Source: a virus (lineage: Duplodnaviria > Caudoviricetes). Taken from it: DNA of 59,678 bases. The notes beneath the pieces were generated by a model, which had not been told where the DNA came from, ran no database searches, and saw nothing but the letters and a program-made list of their open reading frames with translations. The position numbers were made by a program, and so were the translations under genes. The DNA lies in IMG/VR virus record IMGVR_UViG_3300018080_000199, positions 1-59,678 of that record. One strand, given 5' to 3'. This document shows, piece by piece, positions 28,858 through 58,968 of the stretch (positions are counted from its first letter, which is position 1; the number at the start of each line of letters is the position of its first letter).

Positions 28858-29013
28858 ACGTGATATGGAACTTGAACTTATTGAGCGATGGATTAATTCA
28901 AGGATCTTGGAATTAGCAAAACAATATGAGTTAAAACTCACAGAAATAATTCTAATATTAGGACGAGTTATTGGGCATTGGACAAAGTACCTTAGACGCT
29001 ATAGGAGAAGATA

Positions 29014-31809: not shown

Positions 31810-32533
31810 GATTTACTCCCCATTCCCTTCCACTATTACGTACAATTATACCTCGTCTAGCCTCATATAATCGTTTATTAAATTGTAGGGCTTTTCTACT
31901 TCGTCCTGGGCCATTACGTTCATGGTAAAGATGTACGCATCTAGCATTAATTGATATATACTTACAACCAAAATCTTGAAGTCTTGTCACAAAATCATTA
32001 TCATCATAGGCTTGCCCAATAAAATCTTCATCATAACCACCTATATGTAGGTAAAGCTCTCTACTCATTGCAAAAAGAAATGGGAGCTTAGTATTTAAAT
32101 CTGGTAATCTTTCATAAATTTCTTCACTATGTTTCCCGTACTTCTGAAGATAACGTAAATAATCCCCATTATCATCTTTACCTTGCGGTATTGCCAATCC
32201 CATTGGCTCATAAGCAATAGTTTGAGCTAATTGATTTATTAAATCATTATCTACATGATAAATTTCAGCACAAGATAATACTACAATATCACCCATAGCC
32301 TGCCTCACACCAATATTTAATGCGAACCCTGGTATCCTCCAGTGAGGATTCTTTAAATTATGATACCCAGTAAAAATATACTGTGTACCATGTTTATTCG
32401 CTATGGCTTGTGTGTCATCTGGTAAACCATCATTAACAATAATTATTTCTAGATTATGTCTATGAATACTCGGCAATGTTAATTGCAGTAAATGATCTCT
32501 ATGAAATGTCGTTAATATTAGACTAGTTAGCAT
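31793..32533 (-). CDS. GT2-family glycosyltransferase
   Basis: LILTTFHR, EIIIVNDG, ALNIGVRQA.GD, IGGYDEDF.G.AYDDNDF, HLYH. Confidence 0.88.
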   Translation of the reverse strand: MLTSLILTTFHRDHLLQLTLPSIHRHNLEIIIVNDGLPDDTQAIANKHGTQYIFTGYHNLKNPHWRIPGFALNIGVRQAMGDIVVLSCAEIYHVDNDLINQLAQTIAYEPMGLAIPQGKDDNGDYLRYLQKYGKHSEEIYERLPDLNTKLPFLFAMSRELYLHIGGYDEDFIGQAYDDNDFVTRLQDFGCKYISINARCVHLYHERNGPGRSRKALQFNKRLYEARRGIIVRNSGREWGVNHVSTA

Positions 32534-33989: not shown

Positions 33990-36900
33990 TTACTTATAAA
34001 TTACAAGCTGAGCATTATTTCCGCCTGTATTTTGTGCATAAGCAGCAGTATAAGTGGCATAAGAAGTATTTCCCCAGTACTTAGAATCATATAAAATATT
34101 AGAGAGTCGTTTATTCACTCCCCATACATAAGCAGTACTTGTAGTCATACTAGCAAAAAAGCTAAGAGGTAATTTTATTGGTATACGTGGCATTGTGCTA
34201 ATATTAGGTGGAGTATGGCCCATACTCCTATGTAATGCATTTATCTTAGCATAATTAATATTAGCATCAGAAATCATATTCCATAGAGCTAATCCACTTC
34301 CATATGAAGCAGGAGATTCACTTAAAGCAATATGTAAAGTTGTATTATAAGAGAACTGATCATCCCAATCTTGTGAACCAGGATTAGGAATATAACAACA
34401 ATAAGCTGGAACTTCAAGATATACAGCTTTTGCACCAGCTCTTTGAGCAGGTGTAACAGTAAATTGTAAATATCCTCCAGCATCAGATACAAAGAATTGA
34501 GCATAAGTATTTGAATCACTAACATTATATACAACCCAAAGAGTACCAGCAACACTTAAAGTAGTATCAGCTTTAAATGCAGCTAATGAATCATTTTGAG
34601 TATTATCCCATTCTGTTGCTGATCCAGGTGATCCATCAGGCATTCCAGCATTAGTATAACTATCAATACCTTGATAATATTGTTTAGCAGAATATCCAAT
34701 AACTACAGAAGCAGCAGCAATAGCGATATCATCCTCACCTTGTCTGCCAACTGCATCTGCACAATTAATAGTAACTGTATCTGATCCACTACCTCCATTT
34801 ATTGTTACTGCCACAGATTTAGATCCATTAACCCATCCAGTATTATCTGTGTAAGTAGGATTGATATTATCTAAAGGATCAGATTTAACAGGTAAAGTTA
34901 TATTCACATTTCCACTTGGAACATAAGTAGTATCTAATGCGCCATTCCCATCATGAGCCTGTATTGTAATATTAAATGGAGTTCCGCGTGTTATATTATA
35001 ATTATTTGAAGTAACATAGAAGCCTGGATATTGAGTTGCAACAATTACGCTATCATTAAACTGATCTTCCTGATAAAGTATTTCAGCTTCAATACGAATA
35101 TTATTTGGTAAACTTGACATATCTAATAAACAACCATCATATGCCCAAGCTCCATTTTCAAGATTTGCAAGAACATGTCCACCATTATTACTGGCATTTG
35201 AACCAGCATCAAGCCACGTTAATACTTGACCAGTCCCATGATTATAAGCAATAATTTTTAATGTTTCATTGTAAGAAGTATCTCTTGTCCCATTAGGATT
35301 AAGAGTCTCAATAAGTAAATAAAACACTTCCCCACTTACAATTTCACTTGGTGGTGTAATCTCAAGATAATCAGCATTTGCTGCTGTTACTGGCTGTCCA
35401 AACTCAATAGCAGTAACAACAGTCTGTGCTGTTATACCAGCTATTGTAAATTGTGAACTTGTCTTAGGATCATACTTATTAAGTTGATCCTCAGCAACAA
35501 AATTTCCAAAATCACTTCCAGAACCGCCTTTTATATATGTCCCAGAAAATGTATATGTGCCACCAGCCCCTAATGTTATACTCGTAAGCTCATTATCTCC
35601 AGAATCATAAAGCTTATCTTTTGGATCTGAAGTTACGAGATGAATATCAATGACCTCACCTACAAGTCCCCCGGAAAGTGTATAGTCCGCTATGACTGCT
35701 TCGCGTGCTACTGATGCTGGTATACTAGCCCAGGATAACGAGTCAACACGTGCTTCAATAATCAAGAACTCACCAGTCGTAACACTAGCATAATCTACTG
35801 CTGCAACAGTTATTGATGCGGTGTCTGATCCTGAGCCAAGAGTAATTTGCATTGTGTCACTAGACCAAGTACCACCCACAATATTAATATTAATGGTGTT
35901 AAGAACATCTGCTGGATCATTAGAGTTAAGATTCAAAGAAGCAGCAACATTCTCAGAAACCGTATTTCCATCTTCATCTTTAATTCGTATTGCTAATGAG
36001 AAATTAACTCCTCTCTCCACTTCTTCTGGTTCTTGAGTAAACTCAAGAGTATATTGAGGAGGCGGTGGAGGCGGTGGAGGCGGTGGAGGCGGTGGATCTC
36101 CAGGACCATTTTGATCTTCAGTAGGTACATCATATTCAATTTGTGCCCTACCATAACCCACATCACTTGGCATAGGATTACTTGCGCCTACTGGATAAGA
36201 AGGATCACCAGTCCAATAATTAGTATTCTCAAGAGGATTATTACCACCGTCTATATTACCAGCATTTGAAGCTAATTCCGCTTCAAGATGAATAACATTC
36301 TCTTGTGGATCATGATTTATTAAATCAAGAATCCCTCGAATATTATTACTACTAAGAACCGTAAAATCAAAAGTTGCCGGATCAAAATGTTGAAATTCTA
36401 ATGTACGAAGTATAGTATCAATAGCAATACGTCTCCAAGAATTACTATACCGATATCCCCACCATGATGCAGATAACACCACAAGACTCTCAATATTATA
36501 AATATAGAAGTCTTTTTCCAGAACACGTAGACCGAAAGTATTGATATTATTTGAGTACCGATACTCTCGCTCCACGCCTTCTTCTTCCGAATAATCTTTA
36601 CGCCATTTTGCTATAACGCGAGTATAAATATCCTCAGTACTACTAAAGCTTAATTGCATTGTTTTAAGAATTGTATCTGTCTCATCAATAGTACCAGGAG
36701 ATGAGGGGATCTCACTAAGGTATTTAATATATACAATACCATTATCAATAAATAAAGCACAACGAGATTGCCAAGCAATTTCTTCACATAAATCAAGAAC
36801 ATTAGGTTGATCAAAAACTGTAAAACCACAAGGATATTTTTGTAACTTAGTATTCACAGATGTAAAACTAACAGGGTCTGGAGTTAAAGAAGAATAAGTA

Positions 36901-38318
36901 TTTAGTAACCATGAGATAATACTTGCAGCATTAGGGCCTACTGTAGACCGAAGCGAGACATAGATTGTTGACTCCCAATTCTCACCTTGATAGTCCTCAA
37001 GAGAGATTGGAAACTCTAACGTAGTACAATTCTGTGTTCCAAGAGTATTAGAGAGATTAAGTATATAGTAACTCTTAGGGACAGGAGCAAAAATCTTTTT
37101 ACCTCGATAAGTCCGATATGCAAAGACTTCGAGCTTTTCAATAGATGGTATAGCATTAATAACATAGGTAGTATTATAAGAGACCTCTTGATTAACAATT
37201 GTCCCAGGACGTATTGCAAACATACCTTGAACAATAGTAGTTACAGATCTTACTTCTTCATGCTCAGATGATACAAGCGTCTCATACCATGTAGCAATAT
37301 TCTCAATAGTATATGTGGCTCCCCATGAAGATCTTGGTATAGGAGCAGTCTCTAAGATAGTATCATTAAGTGTTAGACGAACGTTTAAGAGTGTTCCACT
37401 TGGTCGCCATGGTTTTGCGAAAAAGTACTTTTGCCCTTCATGACCAACACATTTATTAACCATCGGTCCATGAGTAGGATGATTAACATAACAATAAAGT
37501 CCAATAATGTTTGGCTGATCAATAAGCCATACGACGCTGGCGTCAAGATACGAAGTGTCAAAGAATCTACGATTACCAATAGCAATATTAGTATGATGAG
37601 GTAAGTTCCTTTGTATAACAGTAAAAATATCTTCGTCAAATGTACCTTGAAATCTGATATCAGCAATACGGAGATTAATAGGTGTTCCTTGTGGAAAATC
37701 CTCGCCATTCTCAACTCGAAAATTATCAAAATTATGATTAATACCATAAGCTAATCTACCACGTGCGCGATATTTTACTCGTACTGCTGGAACCTTAAGT
37801 ACTGTACCAAAACAAAGAGGCCATACAACTCCAATAGCTTCTTCTGCAAGATTTGCAAAAGCTCCTGCCTCTGGAGCATAACCTACTGAGCGATCTTCAA
37901 CATAAGATTCAATATCAAAAGATAATGACCTTTCTCCTTCACTCCAATTTATATCTCCTGATATTATACCTTTAAGAACTACTACAAGATCAGATTGTGA
38001 GAGCCCTTCAAAATAATGATATACTGTTATTGAGGTACTCTCAAGAAGAACACGATCAACCTTAGTTTTAAGACTACCATCACTATCATCTAGTTTCACA
38101 TTAGCTGAAGATACTTCGCCTGTTGTATCCTGCTTCCCTTGAGAAGAGATAGCCGAAAAATCAAGCATCTTCCCTTGTACTGACCACCCACCAAGAGAAA
38201 AAGTCTTAAACCCATAATACTCAACACCAGTTGACCAATTAATTTGTAAAATTAATTGTGGCTCAGTACCCAAACGGGTATTTATCTTAGTTTCAGTTGG
38301 AGTAGAAATATTTCTCAT
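33990..38318 (-). CDS. large tail-tip/central tail protein with Ig-like C-terminal domains
   Basis: 1442 aa; WPLCFGTV.KVPA hub-like motif, poly-Pro linker, beta-rich repeats. Confidence 0.75.
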   Translation of the reverse strand: MRNISTPTETKINTRLGTEPQLILQINWSTGVEYYGFKTFSLGGWSVQGKMLDFSAISSQGKQDTTGEVSSANVKLDDSDGSLKTKVDRVLLESTSITVYHYFEGLSQSDLVVVLKGIISGDINWSEGERSLSFDIESYVEDRSVGYAPEAGAFANLAEEAIGVVWPLCFGTVLKVPAVRVKYRARGRLAYGINHNFDNFRVENGEDFPQGTPINLRIADIRFQGTFDEDIFTVIQRNLPHHTNIAIGNRRFFDTSYLDASVVWLIDQPNIIGLYCYVNHPTHGPMVNKCVGHEGQKYFFAKPWRPSGTLLNVRLTLNDTILETAPIPRSSWGATYTIENIATWYETLVSSEHEEVRSVTTIVQGMFAIRPGTIVNQEVSYNTTYVINAIPSIEKLEVFAYRTYRGKKIFAPVPKSYYILNLSNTLGTQNCTTLEFPISLEDYQGENWESTIYVSLRSTVGPNAASIISWLLNTYSSLTPDPVSFTSVNTKLQKYPCGFTVFDQPNVLDLCEEIAWQSRCALFIDNGIVYIKYLSEIPSSPGTIDETDTILKTMQLSFSSTEDIYTRVIAKWRKDYSEEEGVEREYRYSNNINTFGLRVLEKDFYIYNIESLVVLSASWWGYRYSNSWRRIAIDTILRTLEFQHFDPATFDFTVLSSNNIRGILDLINHDPQENVIHLEAELASNAGNIDGGNNPLENTNYWTGDPSYPVGASNPMPSDVGYGRAQIEYDVPTEDQNGPGDPPPPPPPPPPPPPQYTLEFTQEPEEVERGVNFSLAIRIKDEDGNTVSENVAASLNLNSNDPADVLNTININIVGGTWSSDTMQITLGSGSDTASITVAAVDYASVTTGEFLIIEARVDSLSWASIPASVAREAVIADYTLSGGLVGEVIDIHLVTSDPKDKLYDSGDNELTSITLGAGGTYTFSGTYIKGGSGSDFGNFVAEDQLNKYDPKTSSQFTIAGITAQTVVTAIEFGQPVTAANADYLEITPPSEIVSGEVFYLLIETLNPNGTRDTSYNETLKIIAYNHGTGQVLTWLDAGSNASNNGGHVLANLENGAWAYDGCLLDMSSLPNNIRIEAEILYQEDQFNDSVIVATQYPGFYVTSNNYNITRGTPFNITIQAHDGNGALDTTYVPSGNVNITLPVKSDPLDNINPTYTDNTGWVNGSKSVAVTINGGSGSDTVTINCADAVGRQGEDDIAIAAASVVIGYSAKQYYQGIDSYTNAGMPDGSPGSATEWDNTQNDSLAAFKADTTLSVAGTLWVVYNVSDSNTYAQFFVSDAGGYLQFTVTPAQRAGAKAVYLEVPAYCCYIPNPGSQDWDDQFSYNTTLHIALSESPASYGSGLALWNMISDANINYAKINALHRSMGHTPPNISTMPRIPIKLPLSFFASMTTSTAYVWGVNKRLSNILYDSKYWGNTSYATYTAAYAQNTGGNNAQLVIYK
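36058..36095. repeat. 9-bp tandem repeat (GGAGGCGGT)x4 encoding poly-proline
   Basis: Directly visible; encodes a run of 13 Pro. Confidence 0.95.
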
Positions 38319-38719: not shown

Positions 38720-39109
38720 TTAGGCTCCAGGATCAGTTGGCCATTCCAAATTATCATATGCAGTCTTAGTTGTGGTGTTTGGATTATCTTGTGGCATATC
38801 TCGAAGATCTTGACGATACGTAGCATAGTCAGCTTTAAGACTAGCTGCAAGAGGCGAATCCGAGAGTTGTGTCCAATCTGTATTCTTAAGTAACTGATCA
38901 CGTGCTCCACGCATCTTCGCCATATAATCAACTGAATCAGAGAACGCACCAATACTATTACCATCATCAATCCACGCTTGGACACGATCTTGAGCATTAC
39001 CATTTACGCCTCCACCCCACGGTACTCTAAGAACTTTGCCCCCATCTTCAGTAACGGTAAGCATGTCCTCTGCTTCATTTGCATAAACTACTGTACTAAT
39101 AGCACCCAT
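38720..39109 (-). CDS. tail fibre assembly chaperone
   Basis: RGARDQLLKNTDWTQLSDSPL...YRQDLRDMPQ...WP. Confidence 0.85.
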   Translation of the reverse strand: MGAISTVVYANEAEDMLTVTEDGGKVLRVPWGGGVNGNAQDRVQAWIDDGNSIGAFSDSVDYMAKMRGARDQLLKNTDWTQLSDSPLAASLKADYATYRQDLRDMPQDNPNTTTKTAYDNLEWPTDPGA

Positions 39110-39120: not shown

Positions 39121-40383
39121 TTATAGTTCTGCATCAAGTTCTACAGTATCATCAGCACTATTAGCAGCAAATGCAACCTGACCAGTTGTAGAACAGGAGG
39201 CTTGTAGAAAGAATTCCTTTGGTCCAGCGTTATTGAATACAGGTTGACCACAATTTGTTACGTTCCAGGTGCCATTTTTTGATCCAGTTGGGGTAGTTCT
39301 CATTTCTACTGGTAAAACTACGGTGCGAGAAACAGATACACCAGATGTTGCATAACCTTGCCAAAGGAGACTATTACTAATACCTCCTAACACTTGATAA
39401 TATCTCTTACACAAGGCAAGTTGCTGTTGATATTGTAAAAATTCAAAATCTGTTGCTTCACCACCCAATTCAAGCTGGATGCCAGTAATATAGACATCAC
39501 AAGTGGTATCAGCATTAGCAACAAAATTAGTCTGATTACTTGTGCCAATATCATCTGTGCTGATCCAAGAATCAGTTGTAACTGTCTGGAAATCAGATCC
39601 AACAGCAAGAACAAAATATATCTTTAATCCTGAACCATTTGTATAATCCCAAGTACCCCCAGAATAATTGAAAATAAGATTAATTTCCTTATATTCCCAA
39701 GTATTTGCAGAATTAATTGTAATTTCAGTTACATAAGAACGATCTGAACCAGAATTACTAAATGCCACGCACATGGTGCCAGTCTTACCAGCTTTTATCC
39801 AAAAAGATAATGTAGCTGTTTGTCCTATGAATTTAGCAAAATTATACCCTTCCACACGCTGCATAACACCACACCAATCACTAGCACCAATGCTGTTATC
39901 GGCAGTCGTGCAATCAAGTTTTAAAGAATAATAAAATCCTTCATTGCTTGGCACATCCGTATCTTGAGTGACCGTATGTACCATTGCTCCCGATTTACGA
40001 TATGCCCATCTATCAAGTGTATAATCATCATCTGATGGAGATACAAAACTTGTACCTCTTTGAGCAATAACCATATTACCATTGATAATGGCATTTTTAT
40101 CAAAACGAGATACGCTCCCACCAGAAATTGTCTCCCAACTATCACCATCATCAACATAAAGAGTACTGTTGTCAGTTGCAAAGTAAAAGCGTCCACCCTC
40201 ACCAGCAGTTGGTCTAGCTGATAAAAGTCCAACTAAACATCGTCCAACAAGTAAATTATTGGACCCATCACCTATGAATAGTTCTTTTTGGTCATTCGTG
40301 GTAAAGCCTAACTCCCCGGCAGCAAGAGTTATGCCGTCAAGTTCGGCTTTAGTTCCACGGCGTGCTTTAATTGTAGCTGCCAT
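39121..40383 (-). CDS. tail fibre protein with Mtd-N-like N-terminal domain
   Basis: TIKARRGT..LAAGELGFTT...LFIGDG; KNAIINGNM.IAQRG; GIQLELG..AT.FE; LALCKRYYQ. Confidence 0.85.
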   Translation of the reverse strand: MAATIKARRGTKAELDGITLAAGELGFTTNDQKELFIGDGSNNLLVGRCLVGLLSARPTAGEGGRFYFATDNSTLYVDDGDSWETISGGSVSRFDKNAIINGNMVIAQRGTSFVSPSDDDYTLDRWAYRKSGAMVHTVTQDTDVPSNEGFYYSLKLDCTTADNSIGASDWCGVMQRVEGYNFAKFIGQTATLSFWIKAGKTGTMCVAFSNSGSDRSYVTEITINSANTWEYKEINLIFNYSGGTWDYTNGSGLKIYFVLAVGSDFQTVTTDSWISTDDIGTSNQTNFVANADTTCDVYITGIQLELGGEATDFEFLQYQQQLALCKRYYQVLGGISNSLLWQGYATSGVSVSRTVVLPVEMRTTPTGSKNGTWNVTNCGQPVFNNAGPKEFFLQASCSTTGQVAFAANSADDTVELDAEL

Positions 40384-40397
40384 GTTAGGCTCCTTGT

Positions 40398-40430
40398 GGG
40401 AGGGGATAATTCAGTAAATTATCCCCTCCC
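40398..40430. terminator. 14-bp-stem hairpin containing a variant of the 15-bp palindrome
   Basis: GGGAGGGGATAATT-CAGTA-AATTATCCCCTCCC. Confidence 0.6.
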
Positions 40431-40442
40431 TTGGGATCATTC

Positions 40443-41708
40443 TTATACAAAACTACCGCCATCTACAAGTGCCACAGAGATTTCATCAGGACTACCATTA
40501 TCATGCACAATTGAACTATTATCAATCTTAACACCAACTCCATTTGCAGTCACACTAACGGCTGCAATAGTTGCACCTGTCGCTGTATCAGAGGCAACAC
40601 TGAGCGTAGAACCAGCACCACCACTAATACCATTACCCTGTGCAGCAAGCCGAAGGGTGGCTGAATCAACCTCAAGACCAGTACCATCAAGATCATCAAC
40701 ATCAAGCCCAACACCATTGGCAGTCACATCGACCGGGATCACATTTCCACCAGTCGTACTATCAGGTTTCACACTGATAGTGTTTGAAGAGATCTGAATA
40801 CCGTTACCAGCACTAAGACCTCCACCCTGATTCATAAGTACCCACTCACCAGTCGGCACAGTACCGTCAAACGAGTAAGTGTTATTCTCATTAACACTAT
40901 TCTCACCGGAACACAGAATGGCATTACCTTCAGCAGCATCAGTAGTTGCTGAGCCAGTATTCGTTGTGCCATTGAAGCTCACAACCTTACCATCATCAGT
41001 TGCATCCGTATAAGGAGCAATAAGTGCCGTAGCTGTTGAGAGTGCTGCGCGAGTTCCAGAAGGCACAAAACCACCAGCGCCAGTAATAACCTTAACCCAT
41101 GCCGATCCATTATACTCCCAGATATCACCAACAGTTGCAGTTGCCAAATCACCAGCACCATTAGCAGTTGTCACAACATACGAATCGCCAGAACTAGGTG
41201 AAAGTCCTTCAATCGTTAATGCAGCATCATTACCAACAAGGCCCATTACACTTGCGGGTTCCTTCCAAGAACGACCTTCAACTGCATTATTAATCTCAGT
41301 TGCGATCTTACTTGCGGTCCACAGATCAGCAGTCGTAGTACCAGCATCATCAACTGCTACACCAGCATCCTCAGGCTTACCATTAGCATCAATCTTAATC
41401 AGATTGTCCTGAGTACCAGAAATATCTGAAAGAATCTCTTCAAAAGCTGAACCAGTATCAATGAACAGTTCCTTTGTGTCAGTGGCATAGAAGAACCGTC
41501 CTGCCTCATAGGTCGTAGGAATATTAGCTAATGTATCTTCAATAACACGACCAACAAGTAGGTTATTACTACCATCACCAATAAACAATTCCTTATAATC
41601 ATCGGTAGTAAAACCAAGTTCACCAGCAGCAAGCGTAATACCATCAAGCTCTGCCTTTGTACCACGACGAACCTTAATCGTTGCACCATACCATATTCTG
41701 TTACGCAT
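40443..41708 (-). CDS. fibre protein with Mtd-N-like domain and RxRxWYG leader
   Basis: N-domain nearly identical to 39121-40383; Gly-rich shaft repeats; ends VDGGSFV. Confidence 0.8.
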   Translation of the reverse strand: MRNRIWYGATIKVRRGTKAELDGITLAAGELGFTTDDYKELFIGDGSNNLLVGRVIEDTLANIPTTYEAGRFFYATDTKELFIDTGSAFEEILSDISGTQDNLIKIDANGKPEDAGVAVDDAGTTTADLWTASKIATEINNAVEGRSWKEPASVMGLVGNDAALTIEGLSPSSGDSYVVTTANGAGDLATATVGDIWEYNGSAWVKVITGAGGFVPSGTRAALSTATALIAPYTDATDDGKVVSFNGTTNTGSATTDAAEGNAILCSGENSVNENNTYSFDGTVPTGEWVLMNQGGGLSAGNGIQISSNTISVKPDSTTGGNVIPVDVTANGVGLDVDDLDGTGLEVDSATLRLAAQGNGISGGAGSTLSVASDTATGATIAAVSVTANGVGVKIDNSSIVHDNGSPDEISVALVDGGSFV

Positions 41709-41719: not shown

Positions 41720-41887
41720 TTAAACAAAAGTACCGCCATCAATAGTATCTGAGTCTAATTTAGATTTGATATAAGTATACAATGCTGCAAGAGTAAGCTT
41801 AAATGATGTTAATGTATTAACAATATACATTAACGCTGAATCATTAGCTGTACCCGTACTAAGATCACTAACCTTTTGGTCAGCCAT
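41720..41887 (-). CDS. small fibre-adaptor-like protein (55 aa, below ORF-track cutoff)
   Basis: MADQKVSDL...TIDGGTFV; GGAGGG RBS. Confidence 0.7.
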   Translation of the reverse strand: MADQKVSDLSTGTANDSALMYIVNTLTSFKLTLAALYTYIKSKLDSDTIDGGTFV

Positions 41888-46087: not shown

Positions 46088-49000
46088 CTAACGTAATTTT
46101 AAGGTTCCGCGTCGAATTTGTCGCCGTAATAATTTACCAAATTTTGTTACGTCATAGCTCTCATTACCACTACTTTGCATATTGACATTCACATCTCCAA
46201 CATTATTAACAATACCGCCACGTTGGAAACTCTGAACGCCGGCATTCATAGCAACAAGTTGGGAATAGAACTTTCGCGTAGCTCCAGCATTCATTACGAA
46301 CTCACCAGGACTCAACATTGCTGGTACTCGATCCGTACCTACAAATCCGCCATGTTGAAAACCCCCGCGAGCTTTAATATCAGATCTAATACCTTGTAAT
46401 TCTGTTATCATATTCTTAAATACTGCTTCATTACGTTTCAAAATATCATTACGTTCTTGATCTCTTTTTTGTTGTTCAGGGATAAGTCCTTCTAATTGTT
46501 TTTGGGCATCTTCAAAAGATTTTTGTGCTTTATCTCTTGCTTCTTCTAATCCTTTTATAGTAGCTGTTTGTTTTTCTTCTGCTGCAATAATAGTTGTAGC
46601 TGTATCTGTAAAAAGTTTAATATTTGGAGTTAGATCCTTTGTCATACCAAAAACTACTTGCTCATTTATTGCAATTAAATCCTTTGTTATTTTATTTAAG
46701 TTTTCAATTGTAGGGGCACGAATAAAAGCATCAATCTTCTCAGAAATAACTTGTTGTCGTGTACCTGCTCTTAGAGTAGTAATATCTTTACCAAAAGCTT
46801 TTAGAGCTTGTTTTAATGATCCTATTTGAACTGCTTCCTCATCTACATATGCTTGTCGAGCTTTAACAGCTTCTTCAGCTATTTTTTGTTGTTCAGCAAC
46901 AACTTTTCGAGCATTATCAAGTTGAAGATTAGTAATTGCTGCTTCTTGAAGTTTTTCTAATTGATCTTTACGTTTTAGCAATTGTTCTTCAAGCCTAAGT
47001 CTTGTATTAATATCAAGTACATTTGCCTTTTCACGTAAGGATTTTCGAAAATCTTCAATACGTACAAGAGCACCAGTAATATTTGTAATCTGTTGATCAA
47101 TATCTTTTGTACCAAGAATATCCTTAACACTAATTGCAGTAATATCAAGATACCCATCTTTAATTTCTTGTAAATTACGTTTGCGTTCCGCTGCTTCTTC
47201 TTCAGCCTTTTTCTTTTGTTCTTCAGCAAGACGTTTTTGTTCTTCAACTAAACGAATCTGTTCTAATGTTAAGCGATTTTGAAGTTTAAGAATATCTGTA
47301 CGATCAATCTCAACTTTACGAAGTTCACGAATCTTCTCATCATACTCTTTAAGTTTACGAACTTCTCTAGCAAGACTAGCTTCTCTTTCACGTTGTCCTC
47401 TAGCAATATCTCTCTGAGCTTTAATAACATTAGGATCAATCGTATCAATACCAATGATACCACGCCTACTACTACGTGTAATACGTGTATATTGTTCTGC
47501 ATTTTTAGCGGCATCAAGAAGTTTCTTTTGATCATCAAGCTCTTTATCTGATATCTTTTTCTTAAGGTTTGCAATTTTAGTTTCTTGTTCCACACGTCTA
47601 CGCTGTAATCGAACTAATTTCTCTTCGCTTCTCTCATTTTTATCGGCAACTTGATCTTGAATTTTAGCTATTTGATCTACAATTCCAAGCTGCTCTTTAT
47701 AGAGTTCTGCAACAGCGCGAATACTCTCTTGGTCAATACGTCCAAAGAGTGCTGTACGTTGTTTCTGAAGTTGTTCAAAACGCTGTCGAAGAAGATTTAA
47801 TTGTTCTGCTGGATCTTCAATCTCCCCAAGTCTAAACTCAAATGTTCTTTGCTCTATAGAACGTTTAAGATCATTAATAGTTTTAATAGAATTCTCAATA
47901 AGTTTCTGTGAGTCCTTAATAACTTTATCTACATCTTTGATGCCTTTCTGAAGTTCTTTAACAACTTCACGATAAGCAGTCCTAAGATTTGTAGTAATCT
48001 CTTTATCTATAGCTACTTGTTCATCAATAAGTTTTGTATTCTCTGATTGCAAGGTAGCAATAGCTTGTCTAGCTATTTGTACTTCTTGAGTATAAAAATT
48101 ATCTATAACACGTAAAAGATCCCTATATTCACGTTTCTGTTGTTCAATAGCTCTTTCTCGGGCTTCTTCTTGTTGTGCTAAAGCTTCCTCAGTTACCTTT
48201 GTCATTCTATCAAGAAGAATACGAGTAGCAGCCCCAAGAGCTAATAATGCAGCCGCAACAGGATGCGCGATAGCTAACTTACCTAAAGATGCAGCAGCAT
48301 AAATAGCAGCAGGAGCTAAAAGTCCAGTAAGTCCCTCAGCTAAAGCCTTAACAATACCTGATAAGCCGCCAAGAGGTTCTGTAACTCCTTGCACAACCTC
48401 TAAGAATACAGTACCAAACTCCTCAGTAAAATAATTCTTTATCTTTTGTACTTCGATCTTAATATCACGACCTACATTTTCCATTGTTTCTTTTGTTGCT
48501 GTACGGTAAGATTCTTGAGCATTTTGAATTTCTTTCCAGTTTTGTTCAAAAGTCTCAAGACCACGACCTGCAAAAATCATAGCACCAGAGATAGCTCTAA
48601 TACGTCCAAAGAGTTTACCAAGTTCTGTAGAACTTCCCTGAGTACGTTCTTCTAAACGCTGTAATACTCCACCAAAACCAAACGTCTTAATAGCTGCTTC
48701 ACCAGAGTCAACACCTAATTCCTTAAAGAACTTGGACATTTCCTTAGTAGGACGTATAAGCTTTAAAAGGATGTTACGAATTAAAGTCTGAGCTTTCTCA
48801 AACGGCACACCACGAATTGTTACTGTAGTAATTGCAGCCGCAAGATCATTAAAACTAAGACCTAAATTCGCAGCAGGAACAGCAGTAATACCAATTGTAT
48901 TTGCCATCTCATCAAGACGAACACGGCCAAGTTCAATAGTCTTGAATGTTTGTGCAGCAATATCCCCAGTATCCTCCATACTAAGATTAAAGGATTTCAT

Positions 49001-50134
49001 CACAGCAGAAAGAAGTTGCACAGAACTAGTAGCATCTGAGACACCAACTAATGCAAGCCTATTGGCTTCTTCAAGAAAACCAAATACTTCAGCGCCTTTA
49101 GCAACCTGGTTAGATAATGTTTGATATGCTGCTTCAGTCTGATCAAGAAGTTCAATACCAAAAGAATCAGATAATACCCTAAGACCAGCCGCCCATTCTT
49201 GAACGGCAAGTTGATTCTGTTGTGAAATTGTACGTAGCTCAGAAATACGTATTGAAAATTCTTGTGCAGTGCCAATTGCTTCACGCATAGATCTTAACAA
49301 TAAACCAATAGATCTATAAATAAGTTGTGATTGAATAATACGTGCCATTGACTGCCAAGAAAGGGTCAAATCTTTAACGCGATCCTTAGTATCAGCTAGA
49401 CTCTGATTAACAGGACGTAAACCACCTTGAACATTTTGTAAAGTATTTCCTACATAAGTTAAAGTAGCTTGGAATTTTTGGCCATCAGTCGTTGTACCCT
49501 GTATAATTCTTTGAGTACGATCCATTGCTGTATTAAATTTTGTACTTTCTTTAACATTTTGGACATACCCACTTGCTATTTGTTGATTAATAGTATTTAA
49601 TCGTGCTTGGGCTCTAGTACTTTGCTCTGCTAATCTTGCTTGAGCATTAATTTGTGCTTGTGTAGCCTGTACCGTTCTTTCTCTTGCTACAATACCTTCT
49701 CCCGCAGCATTTGTAGTTACTCGTAATTGTGTTCCTTCTTGCGTGAGAACAGTAATATACTCACGTTTCTTTTGTAATTCCTTATCTAATACAGTAACCT
49801 CATTTAGTCTAGTTTTAGTACGTTCTGCAAGTAACGCATTAGCATCAAAACCAGCTTTAGCTTCTTTCTCTGTGCTTGCAGCAGCTTCAGCTTGTTTTGC
49901 TGTTATCTTTTCAAGAGCAGTAACAAGGTTAGCTAACCCTTCAAATGACCCAACTTGAGTATTAAATCTCTCCATTGTAGCTATAAATTGAGTCATACCT
50001 TCGTTAACTTGAATAACCTTCTTGCGAAGATTCTCAAGTCCAAGCATAGCTTGAGATACATCAAAGGCAATGGAGCTAGCAAAATCAGCTTCATCACCAG
50101 CAGTACCATACCATTTTCTAATTTTATAAATCAT
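46088..50134 (-). CDS. tape measure protein
   Basis: 1348 aa, long helical/coiled-coil, TP901-like core (AAYQTLS..., FKTIELG); C-terminal GTDRVPAMLSPGEFVMNA. Confidence 0.92.
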   Translation of the reverse strand: MIYKIRKWYGTAGDEADFASSIAFDVSQAMLGLENLRKKVIQVNEGMTQFIATMERFNTQVGSFEGLANLVTALEKITAKQAEAAASTEKEAKAGFDANALLAERTKTRLNEVTVLDKELQKKREYITVLTQEGTQLRVTTNAAGEGIVARERTVQATQAQINAQARLAEQSTRAQARLNTINQQIASGYVQNVKESTKFNTAMDRTQRIIQGTTTDGQKFQATLTYVGNTLQNVQGGLRPVNQSLADTKDRVKDLTLSWQSMARIIQSQLIYRSIGLLLRSMREAIGTAQEFSIRISELRTISQQNQLAVQEWAAGLRVLSDSFGIELLDQTEAAYQTLSNQVAKGAEVFGFLEEANRLALVGVSDATSSVQLLSAVMKSFNLSMEDTGDIAAQTFKTIELGRVRLDEMANTIGITAVPAANLGLSFNDLAAAITTVTIRGVPFEKAQTLIRNILLKLIRPTKEMSKFFKELGVDSGEAAIKTFGFGGVLQRLEERTQGSSTELGKLFGRIRAISGAMIFAGRGLETFEQNWKEIQNAQESYRTATKETMENVGRDIKIEVQKIKNYFTEEFGTVFLEVVQGVTEPLGGLSGIVKALAEGLTGLLAPAAIYAAASLGKLAIAHPVAAALLALGAATRILLDRMTKVTEEALAQQEEARERAIEQQKREYRDLLRVIDNFYTQEVQIARQAIATLQSENTKLIDEQVAIDKEITTNLRTAYREVVKELQKGIKDVDKVIKDSQKLIENSIKTINDLKRSIEQRTFEFRLGEIEDPAEQLNLLRQRFEQLQKQRTALFGRIDQESIRAVAELYKEQLGIVDQIAKIQDQVADKNERSEEKLVRLQRRRVEQETKIANLKKKISDKELDDQKKLLDAAKNAEQYTRITRSSRRGIIGIDTIDPNVIKAQRDIARGQREREASLAREVRKLKEYDEKIRELRKVEIDRTDILKLQNRLTLEQIRLVEEQKRLAEEQKKKAEEEAAERKRNLQEIKDGYLDITAISVKDILGTKDIDQQITNITGALVRIEDFRKSLREKANVLDINTRLRLEEQLLKRKDQLEKLQEAAITNLQLDNARKVVAEQQKIAEEAVKARQAYVDEEAVQIGSLKQALKAFGKDITTLRAGTRQQVISEKIDAFIRAPTIENLNKITKDLIAINEQVVFGMTKDLTPNIKLFTDTATTIIAAEEKQTATIKGLEEARDKAQKSFEDAQKQLEGLIPEQQKRDQERNDILKRNEAVFKNMITELQGIRSDIKARGGFQHGGFVGTDRVPAMLSPGEFVMNAGATRKFYSQLVAMNAGVQSFQRGGIVNNVGDVNVNMQSSGNESYDVTKFGKLLRRQIRRGTLKLR

Positions 50135-51458: not shown

Positions 51459-51977
51459 CTACTGACGTACATCTAGTGCCTGAGTAGCATTACACTGACC
51501 TGTAACTGCAACCGTACCAGCCGAAAGATCATGTGCCAAACTGGTATAACGGAAATCAGGGAGTGTAATAATTTCATCAAGCTCATCACCGCAAGGTGGA
51601 GCATAATGAATCTCAATATCAACGGCATAAGGCTCACAAGGATCATTCGAACTAGAAACCCATCCAGCCGCTTCACCACGCTGCTTGAGTGCATCTTCTA
51701 CAGTAGGAGTACCCCAACCAGTCGTAGAGACTGCTCGGAGAAACTCCCACGTAAAATCAAAACGCACATCCATGGGTTCCTCGTCACCTTCCTTAACAGT
51801 GTCAAGGAGGCCACGATCCCGAACGTACTCAATTGTCTTACGTTCATCATACGTGAGCGTGCCTTCACCGATCTTTATTTCCAAGCTCTGCTGTGCAGAA
51901 CCTGTGCCACCATCCTTGAGATAGATAGTAGCATTCTTTAGATCAATTTGTGCACCAAACCACTCACGAGTTCTCAT
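51459..51977 (-). CDS. major tail (tube) protein
   Basis: Directly upstream of the frameshifted chaperone; beta-rich, acidic; strong RBS and downstream hairpin. Confidence 0.8.
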   Translation of the reverse strand: MRTREWFGAQIDLKNATIYLKDGGTGSAQQSLEIKIGEGTLTYDERKTIEYVRDRGLLDTVKEGDEEPMDVRFDFTWEFLRAVSTTGWGTPTVEDALKQRGEAAGWVSSSNDPCEPYAVDIEIHYAPPCGDELDEIITLPDFRYTSLAHDLSAGTVAVTGQCNATQALDVRQ

Positions 51978-54293: not shown

Positions 54294-55688
54294 TTACCCA
54301 AGAAGCACAGCACCGAGATCTGTATCAAGAACCTTGACCCCACACAGAAGGTCAACCGTCACCAGATGACCCTGCTTCGTGCCATTGTACGTGATCGTAA
54401 CACGAATTGCAATGTTATTGTAATTCGCGACTGCACTCAGCGCACCAGCACCACGACGCGGCATGGCAAGAGGACGAGACACGAATGCAATGGCATTCCG
54501 ATGGAAAGCAAAGTTAAAGCTTCCAGCGGGACCAATACACACGGCATCACCATCAGAGATAGCCGCATCAAGAGGCCGATCCAGAGTAATACCCACAAGA
54601 GCATTAACTCCAATGATCGTATAAACTGCTGTGGCAGTAGAATTACCAAACGCCACCATCTGACCAACCTGAGGAGCAACGGTGAAACCATCCACCGTGA
54701 TCTCCTTTGCGTAACCTGCTGCATAACCAGCCAGAAGGTCCACAGCACCAGGAGTATAGACGGTAACATCAGCATCATCCACGACTGCCCGAACAAGACC
54801 AGGAGCAAGTACCGTGATAGAGGTCGGAGTTGCACCACCAACCGTACTGACCACGCGAAGCGGGGTCATATCGCCTTCAATAGTCATCCAGCTTCCTGCC
54901 GTAATAGCAGCAGAGAAACCGTCAACTGTGAAAGTAGTACTACCCGCAGCATAACCAGTACCATTATTAATCTCACCAGTTGTCACAGTATTGCCGCTGG
55001 TGACATAGCTCATGTTCTGACACATAAAGTGATCAAAACCGAGCTTCCGACCAAGACTTGCTTCTCGAAGTGCCGTACCATCATCACCAACCTTATCGGC
55101 AGTGAGGAAGATATCGGTATCAAGAGCCTGAGTCTCACCATCAGGGTTCCAGATCAGACGCCGACCCTGAGTATATGCCTTATTCTCATTCATGACCTTA
55201 CGAGTATTAAGGATATAGCTCTTTGCGGTCGTGCTACTGAGACCACCAATCACGCCTGCATTGTTTGCCAGGAACTGAGGCCATTGACCAAGAACCACCT
55301 TATCTGCTGCCTGAGCAATAGAAAGAACTGCCGGCTGCAAATAAAGCTGTACCAAGTCCTTCATAGACTTCGACTCTTCTCCATCACGAATCAGGAAAGA
55401 AGTATGGAAGTGCTGATCCAGAGGAACCTGGATATTTGTGGATTCGGCATCTTGCACAGTCACATCATCCGTATCCACCTTACGTGTTGCTTCAAACTCA
55501 CTTGGTTGGCGCGTATTGACAACATCCCCTTCTGCTGCGATTTCCTCAGAAAAATCACGGTAGACCAGATTTGTCGCAACCATATTCTCCACGAGGATAG
55601 CAACAGATTCATTGGCCCAAATTTCAGGCATGAGGGCGTCGTTGTCATTTGCACCAAACCAGCGACGTGCTCTCAAAGAGTAGTACAT
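54294..55688 (-). CDS. major capsid protein (P22-coat-like HK97 fold with inserted domains)
   Basis: PEIWA, VYRDFSEEIA.EGDVVN, LGRKLGFD, AFHRNAIAFVSRPL, VDLLCGVK.LD. Confidence 0.9.
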   Translation of the reverse strand: MYYSLRARRWFGANDNDALMPEIWANESVAILVENMVATNLVYRDFSEEIAAEGDVVNTRQPSEFEATRKVDTDDVTVQDAESTNIQVPLDQHFHTSFLIRDGEESKSMKDLVQLYLQPAVLSIAQAADKVVLGQWPQFLANNAGVIGGLSSTTAKSYILNTRKVMNENKAYTQGRRLIWNPDGETQALDTDIFLTADKVGDDGTALREASLGRKLGFDHFMCQNMSYVTSGNTVTTGEINNGTGYAAGSTTFTVDGFSAAITAGSWMTIEGDMTPLRVVSTVGGATPTSITVLAPGLVRAVVDDADVTVYTPGAVDLLAGYAAGYAKEITVDGFTVAPQVGQMVAFGNSTATAVYTIIGVNALVGITLDRPLDAAISDGDAVCIGPAGSFNFAFHRNAIAFVSRPLAMPRRGAGALSAVANYNNIAIRVTITYNGTKQGHLVTVDLLCGVKVLDTDLGAVLLG

Positions 55689-55698: not shown

Positions 55699-56592
55699 CT
55701 AAATCTTACTCAAATCAATCTTACCTTCTTTTCGTAACCGGATATACTCCTCCGTTTTTAACTTACCAATATTCGGAGTCCCACCTTGACCGCTTATGGC
55801 ATTACCGTCACCACCTAATCCTGCTGTCGAAGTGCCTTTAAAGAGATTACCAAACTTCTCAGGCATTGTTTTCATCATTTCTACAGCCTTACCAACGGTG
55901 AGGTCAAGTTCAGTCTCATTACCATCTTCATCTTTGCCGGTAATCTTTGCCTTAGCAATAAGATTTCCCGTGGGTGCTCCAGCCTCATCTAACTCTTCAG
56001 CCAGATAAGTAGTTTGACGCAGAATAGCTACAATTTGCGGGGGCGAGAACGCTTCATTGGCTACTGCTGCATCTGTGATAGCTCTAGTAATTGTTTCACC
56101 TGTATAACGTTCCTGAAGGGAATTAAACTTTTCCTCCAGTTCTTTAATTTTCTCCGCGCCTTCCTTTCTAAGTCTCTCAGCTTCCTGCTTCGCAAGTTCT
56201 TCTTTAGTTTTCAAAGAATCTGAAAGTTCTTTAACACGATTCTGAAACTTTACTCGCTCTTCAGCAGAAAGTGCGCCGGATTGTAACTCAGAAACTAATC
56301 CTTCAAGCTGAGTAACTTTATCCTGCAAATTTCTGCGGTTCTGAGCCATAATCCGATTCACTTGATCTTGCGTAAATGTCTTAGGCTTAGTACCATCATC
56401 GCCACTTCCCCCACCATCTCCACTCCCACCGCCATCGCCTCCAGTGCCGCTATCAGTACCGCCACCATCACCAGTTCCTCCATCATCATCATCACCACCG
56501 CCATCCGTACCACCACCATCGTCTGCACTTCCATACCATCCACGATGCCTAATTTCGTAAATTAATTCTGCCAAACTTACATTCAAATACAT
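55699..56592 (-). CDS. capsid scaffolding protein
   Basis: G/D-rich linker, KTFTQDQVNRIM, coiled coil, C-terminal EEYIRLRK; start at ATG 56592 behind AAGGAG. Confidence 0.85.
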   Translation of the reverse strand: MYLNVSLAELIYEIRHRGWYGSADDGGGTDGGGDDDDGGTGDGGGTDSGTGGDGGGSGDGGGSGDDGTKPKTFTQDQVNRIMAQNRRNLQDKVTQLEGLVSELQSGALSAEERVKFQNRVKELSDSLKTKEELAKQEAERLRKEGAEKIKELEEKFNSLQERYTGETITRAITDAAVANEAFSPPQIVAILRQTTYLAEELDEAGAPTGNLIAKAKITGKDEDGNETELDLTVGKAVEMMKTMPEKFGNLFKGTSTAGLGGDGNAISGQGGTPNIGKLKTEEYIRLRKEGKIDLSKI

Positions 56593-57052: not shown

Positions 57053-57172
57053 TTACCTCTTTGGGCACTTTTTTCCGGCTTTTTGACGACGACCCAGTTT
57101 ACTTTTCTTAGCTTGATAACTACCTTTATATGGGCCACTCCCATCCCTAACACCACGTGCATTACGTCCCAT
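57053..57172 (-). CDS. small basic protein (39 aa)
   Basis: MGRNARGVRDGSGPYKGS...; GGAGG RBS; TAATG coupling. Confidence 0.5.
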   Translation of the reverse strand: MGRNARGVRDGSGPYKGSYQAKKSKLGRRQKAGKKCPKR

Positions 57173-58968
57173 TACTTAGCCTCCCCACGGGTCTTATCTT
57201 TGACATCTACATCTTGATCTTTAATTTTCTGAGATTCGGTTTTCTCATCTTTAGCTGAGTTATTAGGATCAGCGTCAAGATCAGGTACACCACGTGCTGC
57301 TGCACGAGTCTGAGCGGCTACAATACGTGCTGCACGTTTGGAGTGTTCAACTTCCGCCTTCTCCACTTCACCTTCCGGATAGCCCTTGGCTTTGGATGCT
57401 GTCTCCGCAGAAAGAAGTCCTTGCTCAATATCTTTGGCAAGGGTATCAGAGTCAGTGATAGGAATGATTGAGTTATTAATCTCTTCCTCAATCTTCCTCA
57501 TCTCTGCGCCAGGAATTTTATCAGATAGAAGTGTATTCGCAATTTGCTTTGAAACTTCCTTCTGATATGTGATACTAGGAACATCGGATCTGAGTTTTGA
57601 GAGCTTCTCAGATTCCTCAAGACGCTGATTATCGGATTTAATAGTGTAATGAGTTGGATAAAGTATTTTGGCCTTTTTATTGGAGTTTTCATACATAGCC
57701 CAATATTCAGCTATACGAGTCTCACCATGCTGGAGTTCTTGTCCAACATAGGAAAGGCCAGCCTCAAGAGATTGCTCATCCATCGCACGAGACTCTGCTG
57801 AAATCTGTTTTCGTGGAACCAGATTAGAGAGCGCAAGATTAATAAGTAGCTTAATATCTTTTTTGATTTGTTCCTGCTTCTCCATACTTACCCGAAGTGG
57901 TTCCGGAGAAGGATGAATATATGCAGGAGGTTCAGTACCAATAGGATATCGACGCCCACGTGTAGCGCCAGTAACAATTTCTTGAGGTTTTGATATATTT
58001 GCAGCGGCTTGAGTACCAGGACGATCAAGAGCATCAAAATCATTGTCACTAGGATTGATAGGACGATCTTTCGCCCCGGCATAATTCTGACGAATATGGC
58101 CCGAGATTCTTCGGGGATCATACTGTTCCACATAAAAAGGGAAATTACTCTTGAAAGAGTAGTTCATATCAGCGGAGCAAAGATTGAGAAGAGCCACTTG
58201 ATAATCTGCTACATCCGTTAAAAGACTCTGAGATAATTCTAAAACTACAAACGGAATTCGAGTAATATCTAAAATTACAGGTTCCTTAGCTTCTTTACCC
58301 TGATCATCATAAGTCTGGACTCTAACCTTACCCTCTACACGATCAAAATACTTATATTGTGTTTTGATTCCCTTAGGAAGATTAGTAACCTCGTCATATT
58401 CATATATAAATTCTCGAAGAAGAAGTGCTCTAAGTTCTTCAGGATTATTATCTATATCATACGCCCAATTCCGAATATCCTGAGCAGAATATGTATAGAT
58501 ATATGGGTTCTTTCCCATTTGTTCAACCTGGGTATTTCCAAGTTCCCGTGGCATATCAATAAAGACCCCTACTTTCCCGTTTGTGAGAAGTTGAGGCAAT
58601 ACAAGAGAACCAATAAAATTATTCATGGTACGGGAATGTCTATCAACACCTTTATCTTCACCTTTGATAGCATTCATATAGCTAGGTGTACCATCTCGAC
58701 GCACAATATCAATCATACGTTGGAAGATGGCATTTACAATCTCGTTGATAGAACTTTTAGCAAATGCTGGTACGTATGAGATTTTACGGCGATTATTAAA
58801 ATCCCATTCATCCTCACGTTCTGAGAATTTTTCAAGATACTCTTCCATAAAAGCGTAGCCGCCTTCATAAGTAAGAGTATATTTGTCCCATAAACCCACC
58901 ATCACATCATATTGTGGGTGGGTTAATTCTGTGATGGATTCTTCACCGTACCAATATCGTGATCTCAT
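57172..58968 (-). CDS. portal protein
   Basis: YEGG...YLEKFSERE...FNNR, GKVGVFIDMP, PYIYTYSAQDIRNW, IPFV; follows the terminase. Confidence 0.88.
   Translation of the reverse strand: MRSRYWYGEESITELTHPQYDVMVGLWDKYTLTYEGGYAFMEEYLEKFSEREDEWDFNNRRKISYVPAFAKSSINEIVNAIFQRMIDIVRRDGTPSYMNAIKGEDKGVDRHSRTMNNFIGSLVLPQLLTNGKVGVFIDMPRELGNTQVEQMGKNPYIYTYSAQDIRNWAYDIDNNPEELRALLLREFIYEYDEVTNLPKGIKTQYKYFDRVEGKVRVQTYDDQGKEAKEPVILDITRIPFVVLELSQSLLTDVADYQVALLNLCSADMNYSFKSNFPFYVEQYDPRRISGHIRQNYAGAKDRPINPSDNDFDALDRPGTQAAANISKPQEIVTGATRGRRYPIGTEPPAYIHPSPEPLRVSMEKQEQIKKDIKLLINLALSNLVPRKQISAESRAMDEQSLEAGLSYVGQELQHGETRIAEYWAMYENSNKKAKILYPTHYTIKSDNQRLEESEKLSKLRSDVPSITYQKEVSKQIANTLLSDKIPGAEMRKIEEEINNSIIPITDSDTLAKDIEQGLLSAETASKAKGYPEGEVEKAEVEHSKRAARIVAAQTRAAARGVPDLDADPNNSAKDEKTESQKIKDQDVDVKDKTRGEAK

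Follow-up and report, generated by a model that had tools for sequence, protein, structure and literature searches.

A short N-terminal leader common to head, tail and fibre proteins of an uncultured siphophage, and a putative DGGxF/Mtd_N joint between its fibre modules

Two neighbouring tail fibre genes in the viral record IMGVR_UViG_3300018080_000199 (Duplodnaviria; Caudoviricetes) encode proteins that begin with almost the same segment, and only one of them carries eight additional residues ahead of it, which raises the question of what this short leader is and where it ends. The window analysed here is the whole stretch of DNA of that IMG/VR record, 59,678 nucleotides in length. An original prediction, made from the letters alone, had taken the leader for a detachable module, dispensable for folding, with cleavage most simply at W[YF]|G or G|A, and had treated the leaderless neighbour as its natural control. 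Our analysis points, with a probability of about 0.5 for the proposal as a whole, to a modular fibre of three products, linked by a joint in which the C-terminal DGGxF strand of one protein meets the Mtd_N domain at the start of the next, and to a leader that is read in trans and most likely cleaved after its Gly residue. The two genes, called fibA and fibB in the following, and their relevant parts are these (aa, amino acids):

40443..41708, minus strand: fibA, first tail-fibre gene, 421 aa, comprising the leader, the Mtd_N domain, the fibre body and the C-terminus ..VALVDGGSFV
41685..41708, minus strand: fibA leader, codons 1-8 (MRNRIWYG), absent from fibB
41568..41678, minus strand: fibA Mtd_N domain (Pfam residues 11-47), E 3.4e-14, 52.9 bits
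40446..40478, minus strand: fibA C-terminal strand, residues 411-421 (..ISVALVDGGSFV), with the DGGxF ending; predicted docking site for fibB
39121..40383, minus strand: fibB, second tail-fibre gene, 420 aa; no leader, Mtd_N at residues 5-41, distal part different from that of fibA

Both open reading frames (ORFs) were recovered with the N-termini that had been quoted, and both lie on the minus strand, which the original prediction had not given. FibB matches the tail fibre family PHROG 4492 (E 4.8e-59), and both products score well above the Pfam cut-off for Mtd_N (PF18454; 26.3 bits), with 52.9 bits for fibA and 49.1 bits for fibB. The near-identity described for about 47 residues is borne out as well, and so is the leader as the main difference, since fibA alone has MRNRIWYG. 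BLASTP aligns fibA 9-92 with fibB 3-86 without gaps (58/84 identical, E 1e-33); 43 of the 46 residues encoded by the first 46 aligned codons are identical, compared with only 15 of 38 in the codons that follow. In this first part 31 of the 43 identical residues are specified by different codons, and the nucleotide identity is 71%. Because the codons differ behind identical residues, the shared segment is best regarded as an old duplication under protein-level selection and not as a recent copy or conversion tract. The Gly residue of the leader aligns, as had been proposed, with the first residue left after Met in the paralog, Gly8 of fibA falling in the column of Ala2 of fibB.

The start codons of both genes are well defined. 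FibA has a Shine-Dalgarno sequence four bases before its ATG (GGAGAGG-aaca-ATG), and no further in-frame ATG, GTG or TTG was found before the Mtd_N domain. In fibB, the Shine-Dalgarno sequence stands six bases before the ATG (AAGGAG-cctaac-ATG), and an in-frame TGA is located ten codons upstream with no common start codon in between. There is therefore no hidden leader on fibB, and the upstream in-frame start that could have contradicted the original prediction is excluded.

Homologues indicate that the leader is maintained as a peptide. A scan of IMG/VR with the single fibA sequence gave no match, and the alignment-based scan gave matches; with fibA residues 1-95 as the query, 36 matches were obtained, 35 of them besides the window's own protein. 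Among the 22 matches that were read, the nine closest (P0002-P0010) all begin with M-R-x-R-x-W-Y-G, one of them with three extra residues ahead, and the remaining 13 Mtd_N fibre homologues lack the leader and begin directly, e.g. with MAVTIQVRRGTK. R2, R4, W6, Y7 and G8 are invariant in all ten aligned leader-bearing fibA sequences, at overall identities of 62-89%. The DNA behind these residues is less constant. In G011, a complete relative (84,413 bases, terminal repeats, capsid protein 78% identical to that of the window) with a syntenic fibA locus, the leader MRIRNWYG uses the Arg codons AGA and CGC in place of CGT and AGA in the window. Within the window, the leader Gly is encoded by GGA in the scaffold gene and by GGT in the five other leader-bearing genes introduced below, GGT accounting for 54% of the Gly codons in the large structural genes. 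As the Arg and Gly codons vary while the residues stay, a signal at the RNA level is unlikely.

Both comparison and structure prediction place the leader outside the fold, in line with the separable module that had been suggested. The Pfam domain starts after the leader, the 13 homologues just mentioned do without it, and in the related phage G001 the domain is fused behind an anchor segment with no leader in between. In the AlphaFold2 monomer model of fibA (26-sequence alignment, mean predicted local distance difference test score, pLDDT, of 73.8), residues 1-7 have values below 50, whereas block means reach 84-88 over residues 11-90; values below 50 recur in the six C-terminal residues (416-421) and, in a model of the probable tail-tube protein, in residues 1-6. 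This disorder is suggestive only, because these are monomer models of oligomeric proteins.

FibA is not the only bearer of the leader. When all ORFs were scanned for W[YF]G, the motif was found within the first ten residues of five window proteins, and the scaffolding protein, read from an ATG with its own Shine-Dalgarno sequence, is the sixth. The leaders conform to the consensus [RK]-x-W-[YF]-G, followed by A, T, E or S. Over all 79 ORFs (18,033 residues) there are 8 occurrences of W[YF]G, compared with 1.7 expected, and six of these eight are N-terminal, compared with 0.15 genes expected (Poisson P ~1e-8). The motif is close to the start codon in five of the six genes and lies at codons 19-21 in the scaffold gene. 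In addition to fibA, the leader-bearing genes are:

57172..58968, minus strand: portal protein, leader MRSRYWYG (PHROG match)
55699..56592, minus strand: scaffolding protein, 21-residue leader ending ..IRHRGWYG (start AAGGAG-agtgtg-ATG; PHROG scaffold matches)
54294..55688, minus strand: major capsid protein of the P22-coat type, leader MYYSLRARRWFG (homology searches)
51459..51977, minus strand: probable tail-tube protein, 172 aa, leader MRTREWFG (AlphaFold2 model and Foldseek)
46088..50134, minus strand: tape-measure protein, leader MIYKIRKWYG (PHROG and Pfam matches)

The tail tube is probably represented by the 172-aa protein. With a mean pLDDT of 72.5 for the AlphaFold2 model, its best Foldseek match is the P74-26 tail tube, a weak one (E 1.9e-3, prob 1.00, TMq 0.47) in a search where none reached E 0.001; T5 pb6 and other tube proteins are also among the matches, and the gene is flanked by the connector genes on one side and the tape-measure chaperones on the other. 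In the window it is adjoined by a gene for a 244-aa protein (51993-52727), and the tail-tube homologues of several relatives (L004 12734.., L009, L006, L016, L028 12909..) have an extra N-terminal domain of ~100-200 residues or occur as two tandem paralogues.

Orthologues of the portal, tube and tape-measure proteins occur both with and without the leader, which allowed its boundary to be located by homology. G011 carries the leader on scaffold, coat, tube, tape-measure and fibA, and its portal protein starts leaderless with MADITTITHP. In G001 it is present on scaffold, coat, tube and tape-measure, the portal protein apparently lacks it, and the fibre is the fused form without leader. In G002, which has terminal repeats, scaffold, coat and tube share ..IKW[IV]G, the portal protein has ..YYG, and the leaderless tape-measure protein starts with M-SDFGG, in alignment with the residues just after the G011 leader. 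Ten aligned tube orthologues comprise four with a leader of the Gly type, one with ..WIVPF and five without leader (M-AQID, M-ARID, M-PVID, M-KVD), the Met of the latter falling in the column of the leader Gly or in the next one. In more distant coat proteins, the leader ends with Tyr or Phe directly before a conserved [ADSE]N[DS], and the coat relatives from Clostridia prophages (31-38% identity) are leaderless. Because leaderless orthologues start within about one residue of the residue after Gly, the module ends, by homology, after Gly. Of the two boundaries originally put forward, the one after Gly is thus favoured by the leaderless tube, capsid, tape-measure and portal starts, and W[YF]|G is less favoured; the fibre comparison itself is neutral, as Gly8 of fibA aligns with Ala2 in the leaderless fibres.

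Across phages, the proteins of one phage tend to carry one and the same motif, which changes from phage to phage. The ending ..IKW[IV]G recurs on scaffold, capsid and tube in both G002 and L003, and three further loci have the following endings:

L010: scaffold ..LVWLIPY; coat ..GLWIIAY; tube ..ELWIVPF
L015: scaffold ..KPTLACY; coat ..KPVLACY; tube without leader
L028: scaffold ..KSFRLVY; coat ..SPFVLVY; tube ..NPFRLVY

In a test of motif sharing, the six residues before the conserved coat core of 17 phages were sought, at a match of at least 5/6, in the first 70 residues of other frames of at least 110 aa. Such a match to the capsid leader on another protein was found 8 times within the 17 phages, compared with 9 times in 272 cross-phage pairs, where 7 of the 9 fall between close kin. 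Since the motifs are phage-specific and yet common to the proteins of one phage, we infer that some trans-acting factor, in co-evolution with the phage or its host, reads the leader as a signal.

What the leader precedes in fibA is the Mtd_N domain, and here the gene upstream of fibA becomes informative:

41720..41887, minus strand: anchor ORF, 55 aa, ending ..TIDGGTFV; the split-off N-terminal part of the fibre

No Pfam family was matched by this ORF. In G001 its homologue continues in frame into the Mtd_N domain of a leaderless 576-aa fibre (L026 175-1905, minus strand), and in G011 the anchor is a separate 54-aa ORF that ends with ..LDGGSF. Because the anchor is fused in G001 and separate in the window and in G011, fibA represents the distal portion of a fibre that has been split. 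In turn, both fibA and those fibA-type homologues which were read terminate with ..VDGGSF[AV] or a close variant, and the DNA of the two ..DGGxFV-stop ends in the window is identical at 18 of 21 positions (hand count).

To survey this arrangement, a hidden Markov model of the domain was run against the window and 20 loci, giving 26 distinct genes that begin with Mtd_N. For 19 of them, the ORF that ends at most 260 nt upstream terminates in DGGxF (14) or in a near variant (5; DMGSFV, DGGTW, DLGSFA, DGGSYT, DGGNSGSF), cases that are not all independent because some of these loci belong to proviruses related to one another. Seven genes do not follow the rule, and for two of these a single small gene separates them from a fibre with the motif, or a variant of it, at its end. 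Chains of three genes recur in G011, G012 and the provirus G013, and L066 is similar, with one small gene between two fibres. Unrelated phage and provirus contigs (L059 6642-11050; L060 6604-8389; L066 6782-9885; L064, L069) likewise show a DGGxF product followed by an Mtd_N gene, often in chains of three. The G001 fibre does not have a terminal DGGxF, and no second Mtd_N gene was found in G001.

Complex prediction was carried out with three copies of fibA 322-421 and three copies of fibB 1-90. The junction scored 0.86, compared with 0.01 for the best of three controls, a mark that is reached by 58 of 80 solved complexes and by 2 of 110 mismatched pairs, although the fold relies on small alignments of our own and a 3+3 stoichiometry unlike the calibration set and covers the fibA-fibB junction only. 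The runs agree in at least 97% of the contacts, with a partner pLDDT of at least 90. The predicted interface consists of fibA residues 399 and 411-421 and fibB residues 1-11, 14-15, 17-18 and 26, and the contacts indicate parallel strand pairing, which supports an end-to-end fibre in which the C-terminus of fibA would bind the N-terminus of fibB. Sequence searches of the PDB with fibA and fibB profiles matched no solved chain, and a search with the N-terminal 90 aa of fibB returned only 'Cake' repeats at residues 54-84, outside the interface. This segment (..GRFYFATDNSTLYVDDGDSW..; within 40114-40383 of the window, minus strand), which follows Mtd_N, has PDB matches to the designed 'Cake' repeats of beta-propellers and to PQQ-type blades with E values down to 1.7e-8, and probably forms a blade-like beta-meander.

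Tyr7 and Gly8 of fibA correspond to Met1 and Ala2 of fibB, so that the leader would emerge right at the joint. By analogy with the fibA-fibB junction, the first Mtd_N strand of fibA (ATIKVRRG) may pair with ..DTIDGGTFV of the anchor. Removal after Gly would then leave fibA with an N-terminus like that of the leaderless fibres, and retention would lay the leader along the anchor. Since the fibres of G012 and G013 have no leader, we regard it as this clade's general marking of virion proteins and not as a requirement of the joint, and the recurrence of the arrangement suggests that the DGGxF strand and the Mtd_N domain serve as a general plug-and-socket joint for fibre modules. The use of fibB as a natural control holds in part only: the domain folds, and presumably docks, without a leader, but fibB does not control for the function of the fibA leader or for assembly, because fibB appears to dock on the C-terminus of fibA and fibA follows the split-off anchor.

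We therefore arrive at a proposal in which the fibre would be built from three consecutive products, namely the 55-aa anchor, fibA and fibB. The near-identical segment of ~46 residues would act as the Mtd_N connector, its first beta-strand pairing with the C-terminal ..DGGxF strand of the preceding protein. FibA would be seated on the anchor, and the C-terminus of fibA would in turn receive fibB, as gene order in many phages and the single predicted fold of the fibA-fibB junction suggest. In its eight additional residues, fibA carries one copy of the lineage-specific leader that is also present on the portal, scaffold, capsid, tail-tube and tape-measure proteins. This leader would be read by a trans-acting factor co-evolving with the phage, most likely an endopeptidase that cuts after Gly and thereby exposes the N-terminal strand for docking. 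Cleavage of the leader is plausible, and we would put its chances at about even.

Several observations weigh against cleavage, or against a part for the leader in docking. Peptidase families were absent from the matches of 49 window ORFs (the best 25 of 32 Pfam families and the best 25 of 42 PHROGs), from those of 27 further window proteins scanned singly, and from those of 79 of the 101 G011 ORFs of at least 75 aa (all 23 families seen), the 22 ORFs left out of the G011 scan being long replication and structural proteins and plus-strand ORFs inside minus-strand blocks. Prp (PF04327), the protease of the staphylococcal precedent considered below, was found neither in six phage records nor in five metagenome-assembled genomes (MAGs) that hold related contigs, the binning of which is doubtful; L27 was found in four of these five MAGs, under the same doubt, with frames of 88-99 aa. 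By eye, the window leader [RK]xW[YF]G is unlike the L27 motif MLxx(D/N)LQ(F/L)F'A(S/H)KK as printed in PMC9405229. As to docking, other Mtd_N proteins carry up to ~7 residues before the domain, and, since fibB and the G012 and G013 fibres would by the same reasoning dock leaderless, the leader would not be needed for docking in general. Finally, Prp removes 13 or 14 residues from the capsid and scaffold proteins of phage 80alpha, the same motif being present on the phi13 major tail protein, yet in 80alpha the cleavage is dispensable and the scaffold leader itself is essential, for which the authors propose a common chaperone (PMC5744158). On this account, a leader of this kind can act without being cut.

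The portal-to-capsid interval of the window holds only an adaptor-like 148-aa protein and the scaffold, and no maturation protease was recognised in it. A RadC/JAB metalloprotease (7814-8365, minus strand; E 6e-41) was considered as the leader peptidase and rejected, as it is absent from G001-G004, including the leader-bearing G002, which is bounded by direct terminal repeats. The nearest homologues of this RadC-like protein are unnamed metagenomic proteins (~66% identical) whose labels are mixed or missing. Nor did homologues lead to a host: the closest capsid genes are on contigs assigned to MAGs from four unrelated phyla, contigs that are for that reason probably mis-binned, and a search of the ESM Atlas returned viral clusters only, with no host pointer.

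The alternative that survives best is that the leader is retained as an uncleaved recognition tag, a binding site for a chaperone or assembly factor, or in fibA as an extra clamp on the anchor, and we consider this a real but distinctly less probable explanation. The 80alpha scaffold leader speaks for it, as do the lack of any matched protease family in the scans of the window and G011 and the emergence of the leader exactly at the predicted docking interface. The binding sites of trigger factor and DnaK are rich in basic and aromatic residues, and the leader is so too. On the other hand, the invariant Gly and the sharp register with the leaderless starts resemble a processing site, the motifs are precise and phage-specific beyond what a generic chaperone site would need, and the leader is predicted to be disordered.

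If the leader is processed, a host enzyme might be responsible. It is improbable, however, that the leader mimics the N-terminal extension of host L27 and is cut by host Prp as in the staphylococcal phages, even though the logic of a short leader common to capsid, scaffold and tail proteins is the same and the leader of distant capsid relatives ends with an aromatic residue before Ala, Asp or Ser (e.g. ..KFQTFY|A), which loosely recalls F|A. The leader differs from the L27 motif in its printed form, and motifs vary between close phages, while the L27 leader is described as conserved; Prp was seen in none of the five MAGs, and the L27 frames there are short, though the binning is doubtful. The leaderless capsid relatives in Clostridia prophages also argue against it. 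The Prp/L27 leaders of Staphylococcus aureus phages 80alpha and phi13 are nevertheless the nearest precedent, and by analogy the present system would be a variant of this known theme of leaders on virion proteins. In both, a short leader (here 8-21 residues) is common to non-homologous self-assembling virion proteins of one phage, stands outside the fold and is variably present among orthologues. The present leader departs from the precedent in its motif, [RK]xW[YF]G in place of ..LQ(F/L)F|A, in its additional occurrence on portal, tape-measure and tail fibre proteins, in the shift of the motif between related phages, and in the lack of Prp in the records and MAGs searched.

That the extension is no protein signal at all, arising from a mis-called start or forming an RNA-level or translation-initiation element of late genes, we regard as very unlikely. 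All six genes are late structural genes and five have the motif near the start codon, as such an element might; against this stand the single possible start of fibA, the wholly different codons by which Arg is kept, the GGA of the scaffold gene where the others have GGT, the position of the scaffold motif at codons 19-21, and the conservation of the fibA leader as a peptide in 10 homologues. Hardly any weight is left for a recoding event, a hop or frameshift like that of T4 gene 60, by which the anchor ORF and fibA would be joined with the leader skipped or internal, since the features that would permit it in the window (50 nt lie between GTT, with which the anchor ends, and the GTT of ..IKV.., a hop would give ..DGGTFV-RRGTK like fused G001, and the open frame of fibA extends upstream as far as the last part of the anchor ORF) are countered by the good Shine-Dalgarno sequence of fibA, by the lack of structured RNA at the window junction (z +1.35) and by G011, where the event is unsupported because the spacer is 83 nt long, has no matching take-off or landing codons and separates frames that do not overlap.

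Placed beside other known systems, a leader that is read in trans and probably removed after Gly resembles the propeptides of prohead proteases (HK97, T4 gp21 and, among giant phages, SPN3US gp245), which are removed from head proteins only, by a protease whose gene belongs to the head module and usually stands between those for portal and capsid. In both cases several virion proteins of one phage have one short motif; here, unlike there, the tail-tube, tape-measure and fibre proteins carry it too, and no protease gene was recognised in the scans. FibA and fibB further resemble Mtd, the major tropism determinant of Bordetella phage BPP-1, in that they begin with Mtd_N well above the Pfam cut-off, whereas their distal parts are unrelated to it. 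A diversity-generating retroelement was not indicated, in that no reverse-transcriptase family was among the window Pfam matches listed and no other component of one was seen, for a record that is ~63% complete and in which no repeat search was made. The T4 long tail fibre is assembled serially from gp34, gp35, gp36 and gp37. As in T4, consecutive genes would here give products that join end to end, but the joint would be a short C-terminal DGGxF strand against an Mtd_N strand, as known from prediction and gene order, and no sequence relationship to the T4 proteins was seen, no search aimed at one having been made.

The gene context is that of a siphophage. The record is linear, with a G+C content of 39.5% and the above completeness as estimated by CheckV. 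The structural genes occupy the minus strand, beginning with terminase and continuing with portal, adaptor-like protein, scaffold, P22-type coat and the connector genes, then the probable tail tube and tape-measure genes, and finally the baseplate and fibre genes. From this order we take the window to belong to a siphophage, whose genome probably measures ~85-95 kb. Isolated phages are remote: their best capsid matches have at most 33% identity, and fibA had zero matches among them. Two further features flank fibB:

40398..40430, minus strand: 15-bp perfect stem-loop between fibA and fibB, followed after 3 nt by the Shine-Dalgarno sequence of fibB; no U tract
38720..39109, minus strand: tail-fibre assembly chaperone (Pfam Phage_tail_APC, E 9.4e-16), found at the same position in G011

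The stem-loop has a minimum free energy of -36.7 kcal/mol (z -4.6), and 0 of 200 shuffled sequences were as stable; the same spacer of G011 has a weaker and unrelated stem (z -1.95). It could be an element of transcript stability or translational coupling. Beyond the chaperone gene, a 1442-aa protein of the baseplate/fibre region (33990-38318, minus strand) contains a run of 14 prolines (..GDPPPPPPPPPPPPPPQY..) and matched no Pfam family, and its 1380-aa orthologue in G011 has a Ser/Asp-rich linker in place of the proline run.

Elsewhere in the window, a tRNA-Leu gene (anticodon TAA; 7-93, minus strand) lies at the extreme edge of the record. The ORF at 27301-27819 (plus strand) matches the Pfam family dGTP_diPhyd_N (dATP/dGTP diphosphohydrolase; E 7e-31), which is represented in G011 as well. 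Enzymes of this type accompany modified-base pathways in some phages. Matches to sulfotransferase-like, radical SAM and glycosyltransferase families are clustered at 27770-32533, partly in common with G011, and this cluster might modify a surface or DNA.

In its widest form, our reading would extend beyond the window. It is tentative that a clade of siphophages with P22-type coats uses a co-evolving N-terminal 'address' peptide, with its own consensus in each phage (RxW[YF]G, IKW[IV]G, LWIIA[YF], FRLVY, PxLACY), on two to six head, tail and fibre proteins, and that the factor which processes or reads this peptide belongs to no family that can be recognised, as no protease was found in the 79 of 101 ORFs scanned in the complete 84-kb genome of G011; this would amount to a new head-and-tail system of virion maturation; equally tentative, and separate from it, is the DGGxF/Mtd_N pair as a general joint by which unrelated phages and prophages chain or split fibre modules. 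In the literature searched, which did not extend to supplementary files, no description of the [RK]xW[YF]G leader or of the DGGxF/Mtd_N joint was found.

If the leader is a processing or recognition signal, one maturation step would act on head, tail and fibre proteins alike, with a motif that drifts from phage to phage. A new phage or host protease would then be directly searchable through leader-reporter fusions, and annotators of uncultured phages in this clade would gain a simple mark by which virion proteins can be told from their sequence. The DGGxF/Mtd_N joint, if real, would explain the near-identity of the N-termini of alternative fibres even where synonymous change is saturated, would supply a rule for predicting which fibre proteins chain, and may offer a natural splice point for the study of host-range modules in laboratory phage-bacterium systems.

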